A stretch of 16,037 bases of DNA, from the IMG/VR virus record IMGVR_UViG_2571042372_000005. One strand, written 5' to 3'. Source of the stretch: a virus (Duplodnaviria > Heunggongvirae > Uroviricota > Caudoviricetes). Under the pieces are notes generated by a model. That model was given only the letters and a program-made list of their open reading frames with translations. It made no database searches and was not told where the DNA came from. This document shows positions 1,693 through 10,392 of the stretch, piece by piece. Within the stretch, counting starts at the first letter, position 1. Every line of letters begins with the position of its first letter. The position numbers and the translations under genes are program-made.

Positions 1693-1941
1693 ATGGCAAA
1701 GGGTGTGTCAATTTCTCCAACTACGGTAAGAATCCCTGAATCTTTACGCGAGGCTCTTGCTGTCAGAGCATCAAAAAATGGTCGCTCTGTTAACTCCGAG
1801 ATCGTCATGATTTTGCAAGCCGCGATTGATGAAGATAGGTCGCCAAAGTCAGTTGAGTCATTTGCTCAGCAAGAAGCTGATAAATTCAAAGAGGCGCTAC
1901 TTGAGACGCTAAAGACCATGTATGCTAAGGATGAAAAATAA
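1693..1941 (+). CDS. mnt: Mnt-like ribbon-helix-helix repressor (82 aa)
   Basis: VRIPESLREALAVRASKNGRSVNSEIVMILQAAI matches the Mnt/Arc RHH core (NGRS-NSE); C-terminus ...LKTMYAKDEK resembles P22 Mnt as recalled; divergent from arc. Confidence 0.75.
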   Translation: MAKGVSISPTTVRIPESLREALAVRASKNGRSVNSEIVMILQAAIDEDRSPKSVESFAQQEADKFKEALLETLKTMYAKDEK

Positions 1942-2477
1942 TGCTGCACACAATTCATTTCTTATGCCCTGTTAACACTGCCACTGTTGGGCAACTTCAG
2001 AACCACTGTCTCACCGCATTATCTCAAGGCGCAACTGAATTAAATATCCATATATCAAGTCAGGGAGGGGAAACTGCTGCTGGCTTTACTGCGTATAACT
2101 TTCTTAAGTCACTCCCTGTTACCGTTAGAACTCACAACATAAGCAATGTTGAATCCATAGCTAATATCGTTTTCCTGGCTGGCTCAGAACGTTTCGCAAA
2201 CCCATTATCAAGATTCCTGTTACATCCTCTATTATGGTGCTTTGCCTCCCCAGCCGCCGACCATGCCAGATTGAGAGAGTACGGGAAATGCCTCGATAAC
2301 GATCTTGATCGCTTCGTTGAGACGTTCAATATCGACATCGGAACCCATATTAGGTGGGCATCCCTGATAGCAGACTCGACCATTTTGGATGCTAACAAGG
2401 CTCTTGAGCATGGCATAATTAATTCCATAAAAACTGCAAGGCTGGCATCCAATCAGGCAAACTGGTGGGTTGTTTGA
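1941..2477 (+). CDS. ClpP-fold (S14/S49-like) serine peptidase homologue lacking the ClpP N-terminal region
   Basis: By-eye alignment to E. coli ClpP: IHISSQGGETAAGFTAY vs INSPGGVITAGMSIY; VESIAN Ser aligns with the GQAASMG catalytic Ser; RF-NPLSRFLLHP vs RFCLPNSRVMIHQP keeps the His; a later Asp (ADSTILD) is a candidate third residue. Start ATG overlaps the mnt stop (TAATG). Confidence 0.6.
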   Translation: MLHTIHFLCPVNTATVGQLQNHCLTALSQGATELNIHISSQGGETAAGFTAYNFLKSLPVTVRTHNISNVESIANIVFLAGSERFANPLSRFLLHPLLWCFASPAADHARLREYGKCLDNDLDRFVETFNIDIGTHIRWASLIADSTILDANKALEHGIINSIKTARLASNQANWWVV

Positions 2478-2503: not shown

Positions 2504-2527
2504 AAAAACCCACCTGACGGTGGGTTT
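2504..2527. terminator. Intrinsic terminator between convergent genes (possibly bidirectional)
   Basis: AAAAACCCACC-tgac-GGTGGGTTT hairpin; on the - strand it follows the 2526 stop and is followed by a T-run. Confidence 0.7.
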
Positions 2528-2975
2528 AGTCAAACATAGTGTTTCTAAAGTCTCTCGCATACCCTGCTAACACTCTCATTCTATTATGATTGTTAGCAGA
2601 CATGTGAGCTACAGGATGAAAAAGAGCAATCAATGAATACCTGTTCTCATCAAAAAGATTTTGTGCATAAACGAGAGCGGTATTGGATGTTTTATGCCAC
2701 TGCAACTTTTGCGGTGTGCTGATATCTGTGCCATTTTTTATTGGCTCAAATTTATTTTCACCAATTGCTAAATGAAGGTGCATAAGGCCTGCATCTTCAA
2801 TATCAGGAGGTCGATGATAAGAGGTGTCTCTGCCAAAATAGCTGGGCAACGTTCCCGTAGACTTGTAGATGATAAAATCATCTACAAGTGTTTGTTTTAA
2901 ATCAGGAAACTCAACAAAAACCGGGGAGAAAAAATAGTCAAAACTATCCTGATTATATTCCACGGTTACTTGCAT
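2526..2975 (-). CDS. yafO: YafO-family toxin homologue (149 aa)
   Basis: Matches E. coli YafO as recalled: DFIIYKSTGTLPSYFGRD vs DFISYKRDGVLPDIFGRD; HLHLAIGEN vs HIHLANENN; ALVYAQNLFDE...LIALFHPVAHMSANNHNRM vs HLVYCQGAFDE...LIAILKPEPHKLARDNNQM. GAGG SD; starts 8 nt after the upstream stop. Confidence 0.65.
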   Translation of the reverse strand: MQVTVEYNQDSFDYFFSPVFVEFPDLKQTLVDDFIIYKSTGTLPSYFGRDTSYHRPPDIEDAGLMHLHLAIGENKFEPIKNGTDISTPQKLQWHKTSNTALVYAQNLFDENRYSLIALFHPVAHMSANNHNRMRVLAGYARDFRNTMFD

Positions 2976-4093: not shown

Positions 4094-5239
4094 TTATTGA
4101 GCTTCTTTTTGTGATGCCTGTGCGACTCTGGTGAGCGATTGTGTGACCGTACTGATCGCTCTGTCATATGCTGTGCTACCTTTTGGCGTATTTGCCAGAC
4201 GTAACAAGGCATTTCGTATAACAGGGCTTTCGTATGCCTTCGCAGCTCCTCCTACGACACCAGCAGCAGGAACAACAAACGCAGCCGTTTTTAGCATCCC
4301 CGCTAATACTGCTGCGTTTATGATGCCACCACCAACTAACAATCCATAAAGCTGCTGACCATTTAAGTTTTGAACGTTCGCTTTTGCCGCGTGTCTTGTA
4401 TCGTTGAGGTATTTAATAACGCCGTCCAGTTCCTTTCCATGTACGCCTTTAAAGAAAGTTGCTGATTGCTTCCTGTTCCGGTGTAACGCATTAATAAACT
4501 TTTCAACACTAATATTTCCAGACGGATCAGTCGCCTTATCTACAGCATTCTGAACTATGGCTGCTCGTGCGTTTTGCCTACCATTGTCATCCAGAAGCCT
4601 GTAAAGCTGAGAACGTTCTGATGGGTTTTGGCTAAAAACGAGTTTTGTTACATCCTCAGGTGTAGCCTTGCCGCTGGCTATTGCCTTTTGAACGCGCGTT
4701 CTTCCCATCATGTCATTGAATCTAGCCCATGAGCGATCAACCCTAGACATATTGGCAGCTTCTTCTGAGCCTAGTTTTTGGGATACTGCTTTTTTCATAT
4801 CCGCTGTATATGCCTTGTAGACAATATCGCTGGCTTTCTGGAGCGTGTCTTTATCAACAGTCTCGTTTGAATTCATGAACCGCTTTCGAAGGTCAGTTCT
4901 GTTTTCTCTCGCCAGACGCAGGTCATTGGGTCCGCTGGTGATATCGTCTTTAAATTGCTGCAAGACTTTTACCGCGGCTCTATCCTGAGATTTGCCCGGG
5001 CGGCTTAACACGGCAATCTGATTGTCGATAGCTTTTACCGTGTTTGAGAGATCGACAGGGGTATCCCCCATAGCGTCAATTATGCGGTTATATCGCTTTC
5101 CTGCTGCCTCAATGAATTTTTGTTGCCCTTTAGTCGCAGATTCATAAAGCTGTTTATCAGAAATGCCACCCAGACCATCGCTAAATGTTCTGACTAAATT
5201 TTCTCGTGCTTGTTGTTGATTCAGCCGATTCTTACCGGT
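4094..5239 (-). CDS. 5'-truncated phage structural-type protein, possibly an ejection/internal virion protein; N-terminus replaced by IS629 copy B
   Basis: The reading frame is open from the IS junction at 5239 down to the stop at 4094, beyond the first ATG at 5071; C-terminal hydrophobic Gly/Ala-rich segment. Function is inferred from position only. Confidence 0.4.
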   Translation of the reverse strand, partial: TGKNRLNQQQARENLVRTFSDGLGGISDKQLYESATKGQQKFIEAAGKRYNRIIDAMGDTPVDLSNTVKAIDNQIAVLSRPGKSQDRAAVKVLQQFKDDITSGPNDLRLARENRTDLRKRFMNSNETVDKDTLQKASDIVYKAYTADMKKAVSQKLGSEEAANMSRVDRSWARFNDMMGRTRVQKAIASGKATPEDVTKLVFSQNPSERSQLYRLLDDNGRQNARAAIVQNAVDKATDPSGNISVEKFINALHRNRKQSATFFKGVHGKELDGVIKYLNDTRHAAKANVQNLNGQQLYGLLVGGGIINAAVLAGMLKTAAFVVPAAGVVGGAAKAYESPVIRNALLRLANTPKGSTAYDRAISTVTQSLTRVAQASQKEAQ

Positions 5240-5281: not shown

Positions 5282-6172
5282 TCAGGCTGCCAGATCATCG
5301 TTTCCGATGGAAGCATAATAAGCTTTTTCTGCTTCTGCCGGAGGAGTATGGCCCAGCCTTTCCAGCAATCGTCGATTGTTATACCAGTCCACCCACGTGA
5401 GTGTGGCCAGTTCCACTTCTGCACGGTTTTTCCAGCTCTTACGGTGTATTACCTCCGCTTTGTAAAGACCATTGATGCTCTCCGCCATCGCGTTGTCATA
5501 CGAGTCGCCTGTACTTCCTGTTGATGCCAGTAATCCGGCTTCCTTAAGCCGCTGTGTGTAGGCCAGCGATACATACTGAGAACCTTTATCACTGTGATGG
5601 ACCGTGCCGGACGGTCGACGGGCCCATAACGCCTGCTCCAGTGCATCCAGCACGAATGTCGTTTCCATGGACGATGAGACCCGCCACCCCACGATGTATC
5701 CGGCAAACACATCAATGATGAACGCCACATAGACGAAGCCCCGCCATGTGCTGACGTAAGTAAAATCAGCCACCCACAGCTGGTCAGGTCGTTCTGCCAC
5801 GAACTGACGGTTTACGCGGTCGCCTGCGGCAACGGCTTTCCGGCTGATGGTCGTACGGACCTTTTTACCCCGGAGAACACCGGCAAGTCCCATAACCGCC
5901 ATGAGACGTGCCACAGTGCATCTGGCCACTCTGATACCTTCCCGTAACAACTGACGCCAGACTTTACGCACACCGTATACCTTGTGATTTTCATCGTATA
6001 CGCGCTGTATCTCTTTCTTCAGCCAGTCATCGCGCTGCGCACGGGCACTGCGTTTATCCGGATGATGTCGCTGTTGCTGACAGTGGTAATACGTTGACGG
6101 GGCAATATGCAGTTCGCTGCATAGCGGTCCGACCCCGTACTGCTCACGCAGCTTATCCAGCAGTGGCATCAT
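5282..6172 (-). CDS. IS629 OrfB transposase (DDE integrase core)
   Basis: 296-aa ORF in the -1 frame relative to orfA; IS3-family catalytic-core-like sequence ([10 protein letters not shown]...[15 protein letters not shown]). Confidence 0.9.
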
Positions 6173-6495
6173 TTTTTCCAGAGGCGGTCGAACTCCGCCT
6201 TCGCAAAATAAGCGGAAGCCTGGCGAAGGATATCGTTACTGCGGCGCAGTTCACGATTTTCACGTTCCAGCTCTTTCAGACGCTGACGTTCAGCGGTGGT
6301 GAGCCCTCCATCACCGCCCCCGGTATCCCGCTCATGCTGGCGAACCCAGACACGCAGAGTCTCCGGCGTACAGCCAATCTTTGGAGCAATGGAACAAATT
6401 GTCGCCCATTGTGAGTCATATTCGCTCTGACTTTCCAGAACCATACGGACTGCCCGTTGACGGACTTCGGGGGAAAAACGAGTATTTTTAGTCAT
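6169..6495 (-). CDS. IS629 OrfA (HTH/leucine-zipper transposase N-terminal protein)
   Basis: 108 aa, [21 protein letters not shown]...; ends in the A-run GGAAAAAATGA that overlaps the orfB start, the usual site of -1 frameshifting in this family. Confidence 0.9.
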
Positions 6496-6523
6496 CCTGT
6501 TTACCTCTTTCTCAGGAAGTTTA

Positions 6524-6549
6524 GTCTCCAGGATTCCCGGGGCGGTTCA
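6524..6549. repeat. IS629 terminal inverted repeat (orfA-proximal end)
   Basis: Reverse complement reads TGAACCGCCCCGGGAATCCTGGAGAC. Confidence 0.8.
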
Positions 6550-7705
6550 TGATGATTGAGTCTGCGTCCTGTTCAATGCTTCCTGAATCACGCAAATCTG
6601 CGTTTGTCGGGCGTTTGTTTGGTCGCTTCTCAACATCGCGTGAAAGCTGACTCAGGGAAATAACCGGTGTTTTCAGGTCTTTCGCCATCGCCTTCAGGCT
6701 TCCGGAGATGTGAGCAATTGCGAGGTCGTTGCGGTCTGCTTTCGGCTTCTCAATCAGGCCAAGATAATCCGCCATGATGAGTGAGAGGTTTGGATTTTCC
6801 TGTTTGTGCCGTTCTGCGATTGAGCGTATTTCTTCGACCGATAATCGCGAGGCATCGACTACCCATACATCCAAATCTGCAAGCTGACTCATGCCGTTAG
6901 CAACACGTGCCCAGCCCTCGTCATCCATCGATGCAGGATTTCGCAGTACGCTAACCGACATCCTCCCGGCGTTGGCAATGCTTCGCTCTGCAATCTGCAA
7001 TGCGCTCATTTCCATTGAGAAAATCAATACCCCGCGCCGGACGTCAGAACCAGGAATAACGCGGCTTGCAACGCCTTCGGCAATCTTCAGCGCCAGTTCG
7101 GTTTTCCCCATACCAGGACGAGCAGCGATTATCACCAGGTCTTCCGCGTTCATCCCTCCGGTGATGGCATCAAGTTCTTCGATTCCGGTCTTCAGGGTAT
7201 CGGACTCTTCTCCGTTCCTCAGACGCCTGTCAAGCGTGTCAGTGTAGTCGGTGATGATTTCCCCTAACCGTACAGGTTTAACCTCGTCACGGGGCTTTCT
7301 GATGGCTGAGAGACGTTTTACAAGTTCATCCATCGCCTGACTCGATGCGTCGATGGTTCCGCTTTGGATTGGTTCACGCATTTCATCCATGATTTCCAGC
7401 ACCAGACGGCGGTGATAGTTATCCGCGACCATTCCGGCATATCCCTTCAGGTTTGCGGCGCTCGGGCAGTTTTTGCTGGTCATCAGGATTGACGTGAAAT
7501 GCTCCTCTCCGCACGCCTCGGCAACCATCAGCGCGTCGATTAGGTTTCTGTTTCTCGCCTGCTTCCGGATAACCTCGAAGGCTTTCCGGTAGAGCGGAAT
7601 TGAAAACGCTTCCGGCTCCAGCGTTGCAAGAACGTCACTGGCGGTTGGAGTTAATCCACCAATCAGCAGGCCACCGATAACGCTCGCTTCGATATCCTGT
7701 CTCAT
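6550..7705 (-). CDS. DnaB-family replicative helicase (P22 gene-12-like), 3'-truncated by IS629 copy B
   Basis: Walker [12 protein letters not shown]; DnaB C-terminal motifs [36 protein letters not shown], after which the frame runs into the IS inverted repeat; about 45-60 C-terminal residues missing by comparison with E. coli DnaB. Start ATG overlaps the upstream stop (ATGA). Confidence 0.85.
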
Positions 7706-8649
7706 GCAATCCCCCTGTCTGCAAACTTCCCTTCCCGAACTCCCGTTAACGAGTCTTCTCTCAGCAGGTAATCAAAATCAGCCGTCCAGCCCGTGTCGTT
7801 GTCTCCGAAGTAAAACGGCTTGGCCTGATGCACAAACGCCCTGACATACGCTCTGAAACCGTCCACGTTTGGCGTTTTCAGTTGCGGGATGATTTTCTTC
7901 AGGCGGCGTTTTCGTTTCTCGTTGACCGCAACAGCGTGTGGCAGTCTGTCACCGACTTCGGTGTTGTAGGCGTTCAGGAAGGATTCGTAGTCGATTCGTT
8001 CTGCCTTGCGACGTTCAGGTTTAACCTGCCCATCGCCTCCCCCATTGGGGGGTAGGGGGGTATTATTTATATTCTTGTTAATACCTTCTTGTTCATGATG
8101 TGCGGTTGTTTGTGCGGCTTCATGTGCGCTTTCATGTGCGGCATGTACGCTGAAAGCCGCGCTATTGCTGGCTTCATCATGTGCGGCATCATGTGCGGTT
8201 GTTTGTGCGGCTTCATGTGCGGGTAAATTGTCCATTTTTTGAGCATATTCATGGTAATTTGTGATGGTTATCACACGGCCTTTTTGCTTCTCTCCATCAA
8301 TGGAGATCATCCCCTCTTTCACAAAAACCTGAAGCATCCGCTCAACCTGATCACGGCTTGCTGGCTTGCCATGTCTGTCGCATAACTGAAGACCTAAATC
8401 AGCTGCTGTCACAACCAGTTGACCGGGTTGCAGATGCCATTCATGACCTTTGAAATTCGCTTTGTATGGCTTTCTGGCGGCATTCAGGAGAAGGTTTTCC
8501 CACAGGGTGCGAAGATAAACATCTTTCGCCCATGACTGTTTCAGAATGCTCCGGTACAACGGAATGTAACCAGTTTTCTGGTTCTCCATCCTGTTGCTCC
8601 TGCGCTCGTGTGCGGCGCTGAAATCGTAGATTTTTGCTGTATTGCTCAT
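7702..8649 (-). CDS. Replication initiator (lambda O / P22 gene-18-like) containing the origin iterons
   Basis: N-terminus [10 protein letters not shown]... recalls lambda O (MTNTAKILNF...); internal reiterated [10 protein letters not shown] peptide corresponds to DNA iterons; translationally coupled to the helicase. Confidence 0.7.
8055..8222. repeat. Putative phage replication origin: two clusters of 12-bp-period iterons (8094..8222) with an adjacent AT-rich stretch (8055..8093)
   Basis: (C/T)ATGTGCGG repeated about 9 times; a 35-bp unit is near-perfectly duplicated (8094..8128 and 8187..8221); the AT-rich stretch lies downstream in the direction of O transcription, as in lambda ori. Confidence 0.6.
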
Positions 8650-10265: not shown

Positions 10266-10290
10266 GGGGGCATTCGCCCCTTTTTTTTTA
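10264..10290 (+). terminator. Intrinsic terminator after cI
   Basis: GGGGC-attc-GCCCC followed by T9. Confidence 0.85.
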
Positions 10291-10299
10291 TTTCCTTTA

Positions 10300-10392
10300 A
10301 AAATCAAAGCCAAACTTAAGTTACGAAAGAAAATTTAAGTTTTCTTCAAAAATGCTCTTGACCATTAATTAAAGAGATCTTAAATTTAAGCC
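10300..10392 (+). promoter_or_regulatory. pL promoter with oL operator repeats
   Basis: -35 TTGACC (10358..10363), 17-bp spacer, -10 TAAATT (10381..10386); operator-like AACTTAAGTT, AATTTAAGTT and ATCTTAAATTTAAG share the core seen at oR. Confidence 0.6.

Follow-up and report, generated by a model that had tools for sequence, protein, structure and literature searches.

A probable replication origin built of 12-nt iterons within the initiator gene of a CUS-3-type, P22-like lambdoid prophage

Introduction

The replication origin of lambdoid phages is defined as a set of iterons bound by the initiator O together with an AT-rich tract, both in the middle of gene O (PMC7466680). The N-terminal part of lambda O binds the origin (PMC2629481), and the repeats found within the gene differ between lambda, P22 and L (PMC8022706). 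Here, we ask whether an array of 12-nucleotide (nt) repeats in the initiator gene of a P22-like prophage is an origin of this kind and, if so, which part of the initiator would read it. The array lies in a 16,037-nt stretch of viral DNA (IMG/VR record IMGVR_UViG_2571042372_000005; Caudoviricetes), hereafter called the window, for which a sequence-only reading had proposed an origin-like iteron array embedded in the initiator gene. On the strength of the sequence comparisons described below, the region is very probably the origin from which a lambdoid phage of the CUS-3 type, related to P22, replicates; it is located inside the initiator gene, with the repeated units as the putative sites for the initiator.

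Results

An array of 12-nt units in the middle of the initiator gene

The genes of this part of the window are arranged in the order cI (the divergent repressor), cro, cII, initiator and DnaB-type helicase. The initiator gene and gene O of CUS-3, a P22-like coliphage, are 100% identical, and the initiator is 98-99% identical in the isolated phages HF4s, Gally and JEP4 and in about 60 records of Stx2a-converting phages; its product matches the Pfam family Phage_rep_O (PF04492) over residues 20-132 (E=3e-15). The gene, its neighbour and the parts of the putative origin are, in window coordinates:

7702-8649, minus strand: initiator gene (O/gp18-like), 315 residues, Pfam Phage_rep_O, containing the putative origin
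8254-8592, minus strand: N-terminal domain (residues 20-132), predicted winged helix-turn-helix, proposed reader of the iterons, with the specificity-linked residues A82 and D100
8176-8223, minus strand: iteron cluster 1, four 12-nt units, coding strand CCCGCACATGAA GCCGCACAAACA ACCGCACATGAT GCCGCACATGAT
8143-8175, minus strand: 33-nt spacer, coding strand GAAGCCAGCAATAGCGCGGCTTTCAGCGTACAT, with a conserved core CCAGYAATGGCGCGGCYT and a degenerate ninth copy GCGTACATG
8095-8142, minus strand: iteron cluster 2, four 12-nt units, coding strand GCCGCACATGAA AGCGCACATGAA GCCGCACAAACA ACCGCACATCAT
8061-8096, no strand assigned: AT-rich tract, proposed DNA-unwinding element, 36 nt, 80.6% A+T
8039-8060, no strand assigned: G/C-rich element, proposed right-hand boundary of the origin, coding strand CCCCCCTACCCCCCAATGGGGG (C6TAC6AATG5)
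7705-8082, minus strand: C-terminal domain of the initiator (residues 190-315), proposed helicase-recruiting module
6521-7705, minus strand: DnaB-type replicative helicase gene, 3'-truncated, 394 residues versus 458 in CUS-3

Read along the coding strand, cluster 1 (8223 to 8176) is followed by the spacer (8175 to 8143), cluster 2 (8142 to 8095), the AT-rich tract and the G/C-rich element. The array occupies nt 427-555 of the 948-nt gene, between the regions encoding the two domains of the initiator. A Phage_rep_O gene with a helicase partner here carries repeats in its middle and an AT-rich tract immediately promoter-distal to them. On the plus strand, the copies are:

8097-8105, plus strand: copy 1, GATGTGCGG
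8109-8117, plus strand: copy 2, TTTGTGCGG
8121-8129, plus strand: copy 3, CATGTGCGC
8133-8141, plus strand: copy 4, CATGTGCGG
8142-8150, plus strand: copy 5, degenerate, at a 9-nt offset, CATGTACGC
8178-8186, plus strand: copy 6, CATGTGCGG
8190-8198, plus strand: copy 7, CATGTGCGG
8202-8210, plus strand: copy 8, TTTGTGCGG
8214-8222, plus strand: copy 9, CATGTGCGG

The sequence-only reading counted about nine copies at 12-bp spacing in two clusters. Eight of these are good copies in strict 12-nt phase, arranged as 4+4, which share the coding-strand core CCGCACA(T); the ninth is degenerate and out of phase. The consensus it gave, (C/T)ATGTGCGG, fits five of the nine copies exactly but not the other four, and the plus-strand core common to the copies of the array is TGTGCG(G/C). 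Its near-perfect duplication of 35 bp was recovered (34/36 identical, 31 exact, offset 93 nt; 8094-8129 versus 8187-8222), and so was the reiterated linker into which the repeats are translated, a 10-residue peptide that occurs twice in the 315-residue product.

The motif CCGCACA occurs eight times in the window, against an expectation of 2.06, a count reached by none of 200 shuffled sequences, and seven of the eight copies fall inside 124 nt. The eighth (8609-8615) lies towards the 5' end of this gene, at gene nt 35-41, which encode AAHE; since it is not kept in the initiator genes of Klebsiella phage Mulock or Yersinia phage vB_YenM_210.17, it probably arose by chance and not as an autoregulatory site, to judge from these sequences. 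No inverted repeat was found inside any 12-nt unit, except for the palindrome TCATGA that closes the last one (8093-8098), and the remaining inverted repeats of the region either extend over units or the spacer or belong to the right arm. The lambda pattern of four to six units of about 18-19 bp, each with a dyad and spaced by about two helical turns, was not found in the array, as its units are 12 nt long and asymmetric.

The repeats follow the N-terminal domain of the initiator

In tblastn searches the initiator behaved as a mosaic whose N- and C-terminal parts have separate matches. Residues 3-143 match the initiators of phages Mulock (81%) and vB_YenM_210.17 (74%), the rest of which is a lambda-type C-terminal domain unrelated to that of the window and is followed by a gene for a lambda-P-type loader. 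Residues 190-315, on the other hand, are 97% identical to the initiators of mEp213, HK544 and ST104 type and 60% identical to P22 gp18; in these phages (mEp213, HK544, ST104 and P22) the N-terminal domains differ and the next gene encodes a DnaB-type helicase.

The repeats go with the first of these parts. The Mulock initiator gene carries 4+4 CCGCACA units and that of vB_YenM_210.17 carries 3+3, whereas P22 and mEp213 are without CCGCACA units and have other repeats in their place, while retaining the AT-rich tract and the C5..G5 element. The latter two features go with the C-terminal domain, and the right arm in Mulock is lambda-like instead. The repeat sequence thus co-varies with the N-terminal and not with the C-terminal domain: the repeats, whose absence from homologous initiator genes would have spoken against the sequence-only reading, are present in homologues with the shared N-terminal domain and are replaced where it differs.

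A constant layout with two equal clusters and a 33-nt spacer

Relatives were collected by searching for the N-terminal domain in three viral contig sets and in a single genome of each species. Units were parsed in the window and in 31 related loci (N-domain identity at least 64.8%) from Klebsiella, Yersinia, Xenorhabdus, Enterobacter, Brenneria, Sodalis, Proteus, Pantoea and others. The layout n x 12 nt + 33 nt + n x 12 nt was found in 31 of the 32 sequences, in numerous genera of the Enterobacterales, the remaining locus being cut off after cluster 1. The value of n is 3 in 26 sequences and 4 in five, the window included; the clusters are never unequal and no 3+4 arrangement was seen. The 4+4 loci are scattered over the N-domain tree, and the two clusters of one locus are similar unit by unit. 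Equal and mutually similar clusters suggest conversion between clusters or selection for symmetry.

Variation in repeat number, which the sequence-only reading had expected among related prophages, is seen as 3+3 versus 4+4 among distant relatives but not among close ones. In a set of 78 near-identical full-length genes from E. coli and Salmonella (65 distinct haplotypes, the window included) all 78 are 948 nt long, without any variation in copy number.

The spacer measures 33 nt at every locus at which both clusters could be delimited. When the N-terminal domains are only 47-52% identical, the 12-nt-phased repeats are unrelated (CCATCCGAT.., GAGGTAACAAA.., GTCGAA..), yet the two-cluster layout is kept; a repeat distance of 69 nt was found in both of the distant loci counted (L004 and L005), and the spacer core CCAGYAATGGCGCGGCYT persists in most of these distant relatives with unrelated iterons. 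In the spacer, third codon positions show as much conservation as the other two. The degenerate ninth copy at its end, GCGTACATG, is replaced by a full core, GCGCACATG, in 17 of the 65 haplotypes of close relatives.

The spacer also contains an inverted near-copy of an iteron junction (GCGGCTT, 8114-8120/AAGCCGC, 8154-8160). Its potential to form a hairpin was no better than that of shuffled controls (z = -0.9 and -0.4), and the AAGCC/GGCTT dyad was dropped as a structural hairpin for this reason; an apparent compensatory change between the spacers of the window and Mulock failed to hold in other loci. Neither a DnaA box nor an IHF site was seen in the spacer on inspection by eye, and an Rfam scan found no RNA family in the origin region. 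Locus L005 (OR850084, 'Staphylococcus phage SA 1298 Kay', a 2.7-kb contig) encodes an enterobacterial-type O initiator, with a C-terminal part nearly identical to that of the window, and a DnaB-type helicase; it is very likely a contaminant or a mislabelled wastewater contig.

The array is constrained at the level of the DNA

A codon-level analysis was made of 199 units from the parsed loci. The first codon of the unit specifies seven amino acids (P, A, T, S, G, Y and N), yet its third base is C in all 199 units. Alanine codons within units are GCA or GCG in 183 of 183 cases, GCC and GCT never being used, and the third codon is CAT (His) in 174 of the 199. Mean information at codon positions 1, 2 and 3 is 1.54, 1.47 and 1.42 bits in cluster 1 and 1.52, 1.56 and 1.40 bits in cluster 2, as compared with 1.44, 1.70 and 0.81 bits for 70 codons of the N-terminal domain of the same genes. 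Because the usual relaxation at third positions is absent from the array, these sequences indicate that selection acts on the nucleotide sequence of the array, not on the peptide.

Diversity among the 65 haplotypes of close relatives has the same polarity. Core sites segregate at 10 of 56 positions and non-core sites of the array at 34 of 73, with a nucleotide diversity of 0.008 and 0.050, respectively. The stretch from gene nt 421 to 540 (window 8110-8229) has 43 segregating sites in its 120 nt, whereas the C-terminal domain has 8-10 per 60 nt; the sites in the array region concentrate on the non-core positions of the array, and many of the changes are nonsynonymous. The low diversity of the N-terminal domain is in part a matter of ascertainment, as loci were selected by their match to this domain.

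A synonymous base of the unit co-varies with residue 100 of the initiator

Base 6 of the unit is the synonymous third base of the alanine codon, and within one locus it is either A or G throughout, which defines an A-type (core CCGCACAT) and a G-type (core CCGCGCAT) array. In an alignment of 30 N-terminal domains only residue 82 (A/P versus S) and residue 100 (D versus H) split the two classes perfectly. Among 147 unique haplotypes, Asp100 is found with CGCACA in 110 of 110 and His100 with CGCGCA in 37 of 37, and the classes comprise 26 (Asp/A) and 23 (His/G) distinct helix-turn-helix segments. They are not separate clades, as identity between them reaches 98% over residues 20-76. Moreover, in locus L023 A-like sequence makes up both the left part and the wing segment, but the helix-turn-helix segment and the iterons are of G type. 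The wing segment lies, on the DNA, between the helix-turn-helix and the iterons; the match between residue 100 and base 6 is therefore not simple linkage and survives recombination.

In an AlphaFold2 model of the N-terminal domain (alignment of 28 sequences; predicted local distance difference test, pLDDT, 73; predicted template-modelling score, pTM, 0.63) helices span residues 82-88 and 99-112 and are followed by a beta-hairpin at 115-129. The modelled layout is that of a winged helix-turn-helix, in which residues 82 and 100 would be placed at the N-termini of helix 2 and of the recognition helix (helix 3). The best Foldseek matches in the PDB are the winged helix-turn-helix proteins CRP, MarR and CodY, all of them weak (E >= 5e-3). 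Searching the PDB chains with the full initiator sequence gave no match, so that no solved homologue is at hand for placing the contact residues. Taken with the co-variation, we lean towards the view that residue 100 reads base 6 of the unit.

An AT-rich tract and a G/C-rich element adjoin the array

The AT-rich stretch beyond the repeats and the G-rich tract CCCATTGGGGGGTAGGGGGG (8041-8060), both pointed out in the sequence-only reading, were found where it had placed them. The window as a whole is 53.7% A+T, and only eight of its 16,002 36-nt segments have an A+T content of at least 80%. The only other stretch as rich in A+T (10281-10353) lies beside the repressor gene, where the CUS-3 record annotates boundary sequence; near the replication genes neither a second repeat array nor a comparably AT-rich tract was found. 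The tract holds the direct repeats TTCTTGTTAAT and TTCTTGTTCAT, 14 nt apart, as well as an inverted repeat (GGTATTA/TAATACC), and the G/C-rich element holds the inverted repeat CCCCCA/TGGGGG. Compared with shuffled sequences, both inverted repeats fold somewhat better (z = -2.1 for the G/C-rich element and -3.0 for the one in the AT-rich tract), but a role for the latter was dropped since relatives do not keep it.

Among the 65 haplotypes, no site segregates between gene nt 554 (window 8096) and nt 602, a segment that spans the AT-rich tract and C6TAC6. The right arm formed by an AT tract and CCCCC(N)..GGGGG is shared by the window, mEp213, P22 and L005, and is not found in the lambda-type genes of Mulock and the Yersinia phage; a homologue of the G/C-rich element is also present in mEp213 and L005, which share the C-terminal domain, and in P22 it sits within the annotated rep_origin. 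In two viral contigs, L048 and L067, the C-tract is one C short (ACCCCCTACCCCCC, equivalent to window positions of about 8047-8060), which frameshifts the initiator into a 675-nt open reading frame (ORF); the missing base comes either from a sequencing error in the homopolymer or from a natural slip that inactivates the gene.

Comparison with known origins

In the lambda record, four 18-bp iterons are marked at nt 349-433 of the 900-nt gene O, with an AT-rich tract behind them. In the window the parts come in this order too and sit at the corresponding point of the gene, with initiator-binding repeats (putative, in the window) in its middle and then the AT-rich tract; the origin annotated in P22 gene 18 likewise combines repeats with an AT-rich tract. 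As in lambda O, origin specificity would reside in the N-terminal and partner specificity in the C-terminal part, and the repeats are translated as the linker between the two domains. The parallel with lambda ori drawn by the sequence-only reading is therefore sound for the position and order of the parts. It fails for the units themselves, which in lambda are four 18-bp iterons with an internal dyad, spaced by 20-24 bp, and in the window eight or nine asymmetric 12-nt direct repeats. Unlike that of lambda, the array in the window has two clusters and a conserved 33-nt spacer; its right arm differs as well (C6TAC6AATG5), and the partner is a phage DnaB-type helicase rather than lambda P, the loader of host DnaB.

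P22, also in the Lederbergvirus group, has a homologous C-terminal domain (60% identity), a neighbouring gene for a DnaB-type helicase (gene 12) and a homologous AT-rich tract and CCCCC..GGGGG element. Its N-terminal domain has no similarity to that of the window detectable by tblastn. In the P22 record OQ031658 the rep_origin within gene 18 spans GGTAAAAC-type repeats, an AT-rich tract and CCCCCTTACCCCCTAAAGGGGG, and the P22 iterons are units of about 20 bp built on GGTAAAAC..TTTACC (PMC8022706). Gene 18 of phage L is another P22-like gene with short direct repeats, for which an origin was proposed from sequence alone; these are six imprecise 11-bp repeats, TGTCCAACGGA, of a sequence and with an initiator type other than those of the window, and no layout of two clusters and a spacer has been reported for them (PMC8022706). 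Mulock and vB_YenM_210.17 share with the window the N-domain family, the 12-nt CCGCACA units, the two clusters and the 33-nt spacer, and differ from it in their lambda-type right arm, C-terminal domain and lambda-P-type loader.

Direct, non-palindromic repeats beside an AT-rich unwinding element are also the hallmark of the iteron origins of plasmids such as RK2, pPS10 and F, to which winged-helix Rep proteins bind as monomers. Plasmid iterons are of about 17-22 bp, lie outside the rep gene, and both initiate and control replication. No sequence relationship between the plasmid initiators and that of the window was found in the PDB sequence search.

Discussion

A model for the origin and its rivals

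By analogy with lambda and P22, we infer that the region would serve for initiator binding, unwinding, helicase loading and origin firing. The predicted N-terminal winged helix-turn-helix would bind eight or nine sites, the asymmetric 12-bp units with the core CCGCACAT, in two equal clusters that flank the fixed 33-bp spacer; residue 100, at the start of the recognition helix, would read base 6. Because the units are without dyad symmetry, we propose that binding is probably by monomers arranged head-to-tail, rather than by dimers as on the lambda iterons. The resulting nucleoprotein complex would destabilise the adjacent 36-bp, 81% A+T tract; the G/C-rich inverted repeat might then bound the unwound region or contribute to helicase loading, and the C-terminal domain would recruit the phage's own DnaB-type helicase, as in P22, and not a lambda-P-type loader. 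It is possible, though we hold this only tentatively, that the origin complex as a whole is unlike that of lambda, with head-to-tail monomers, clusters that are obligatorily equal, a fixed 33-bp element perhaps bound by a second factor of the host or the phage, and specificity groups, set by residue 100, that are exchanged as a cassette of helix-turn-helix plus iterons.

Could the array instead be a coding feature only, that is, an Ala/His-rich flexible linker expanded by slippage, with no role as DNA? It is translated as (P/A/T/S)-A-H-x repeats, A-H being kept in most units, it sits between two folded domains, and the linker peptide is tolerant of many substitutions. A linker of this kind would, however, have no need for a C at the third base of codon 1 in 199/199 units across seven amino acids, for alanine codons limited to GCA and GCG, for histidine that is nearly always CAT, or for third positions as conserved as first and second positions, unlike those of the flanking N-terminal domain. 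Nor does it explain why a synonymous base co-varies with a helix-turn-helix residue in 147/147 haplotypes, or why distant relatives with different peptides (PDEPCDKPSD, EVTKQVSNEVT) retain the 12-nt phasing, the two clusters and the spacer. We regard a purely coding role as very improbable, and we give still less credence to the idea that the region is mainly a recombination joint between exchangeable modules, in which repeats persist by promoting shuffling. It is true that the match switches exactly here, from an N-terminal domain and iterons of Mulock type to a mEp213/P22 type from residue 190 onward, and that the non-core positions are a substitution hot spot. Module boundaries are nevertheless expected from the two-domain design of O and are compatible with origin function, and recombination alone leaves the conservation of the core, the fixed spacer, the equal clusters and the co-variation with the helix-turn-helix unexplained.

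A further alternative, unlikely but less so than these two, accepts the units as initiator-binding sites and assigns them mainly to control (autoregulation of O, copy-number 'handcuffing' or exclusion of related phages), with replication starting elsewhere. Co-variation speaks to binding specificity and not to firing, plasmid iterons are generally known to serve both roles, and a lone CCGCACA is present near the 5' end of the gene (8609-8615). That copy, however, is not conserved in relatives, and near the replication genes there is no other array or comparable AT tract from which replication could start. The nearly invariant 81% A+T tract and the G/C element of the P22 origin directly follow the units, and in lambda, which the layout parallels, the in-gene iterons are the origin. 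An array for control only is thus less likely, given an adjacent AT tract that does not vary and a right arm homologous to the P22 origin.

Several points weigh against the origin model favoured here. Direct repeats of only 12 nt, short and asymmetric, do not resemble the 18-bp iterons of lambda with their dyad symmetry, so that the mode of binding proposed above is a guess. The uniformity of base 6 within a locus could partly reflect gene conversion among the repeats, although the variable positions of the units are not homogenised, and the match between Asp or His at residue 100 and A or G at base 6 is drawn from relatives that are not fully independent. The model of the N-terminal domain is of only moderate confidence (pLDDT 73), with weak fold matches (E >= 5e-3). 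The origin model also leaves the conserved spacer element unexplained, and the prophage in the window is without an intact helicase gene.

State of this prophage copy and other genes of the window

The helicase ORF encodes 394 residues as compared with 458 in CUS-3; it matches the Pfam families DnaB and DnaB_C, the latter over profile positions 2-210 of 255, so that the end of DnaB_C is missing. Similarity to CUS-3 ends at 6548, inside the helicase gene, and no nin, Q or lysis sequence of CUS-3 was found to the left of this position. The 3' end of the gene is abutted and truncated by an insertion sequence (IS):

5282-6495: IS3-family element, with orfA at 6169-6495, orfB at 5282-6172 and an ALIL frameshift pseudoknot at 6098-6214

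The exact junction between helicase gene and IS was found in 3 of 5,426 complete E. coli genomes. The origin is thus intact in sequence but located in a prophage remnant, and because the helicase gene is truncated by the IS, this copy of the origin is probably silent unless another phage supplies the helicase.

Beyond the IS lies an 'injection protein' gene (4094-5071; P22 gp16-family in related records). Within 387-1260, the antirepressor gene ant, of P22 type (P22_AR_N and P22_AR_C), overlaps the sar antisense RNA (RF00262, 1194-1260, 83.9 bits), and the presence of both indicates that an immI-like region is retained in the remnant. Between the ant region and the injection-protein gene are ORFs for a Clp-protease-like protein (1941-2477, plus strand) and a YafO-family toxin (2526-2975, minus strand), which may be accessory cargo genes of the prophage.

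Novelty and significance

The principle of an origin inside the initiator gene is textbook knowledge, and the general picture of lambdoid replication is unchanged by our finding. Within the records and literature searched, the iteron family and its geometry are newly described here. The CUS-3 record, and the retrieved stretches of the Mulock and vB_YenM_210.17 records, annotate no origin. No description was found in the literature on CUS-3, HK620, Sf6 and the Eru types of Stx (Shiga toxin) phages, a mention in the CUS-3 genome paper not being excluded, and papers on the Eru replication types do not mention iterons. What goes beyond the known picture is that cluster sizes are always equal, that the 33-nt spacer is fixed and conserved, and that substitutions pile up in the array at positions outside the core.

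This type of initiator is widespread, occurring in P22-like phages of E. coli and Salmonella (CUS-3, HF4s, Gally and JEP4) and in about 60 records of Stx2a-converting phages, with a related N-terminal domain in prophages of Klebsiella, Yersinia, Xenorhabdus, Enterobacter, Brenneria, Sodalis, Proteus and Pantoea. Mapping of the origin would allow such phages to be annotated correctly and to be sorted into replicon specificity groups, including those of Shiga-toxin phages, whose replication drives toxin production. Finally, the pairing of Asp or His at residue 100 with A or G at base 6 amounts to a naturally replicated 'specificity swap', which makes the recognition of DNA by the initiator directly testable.

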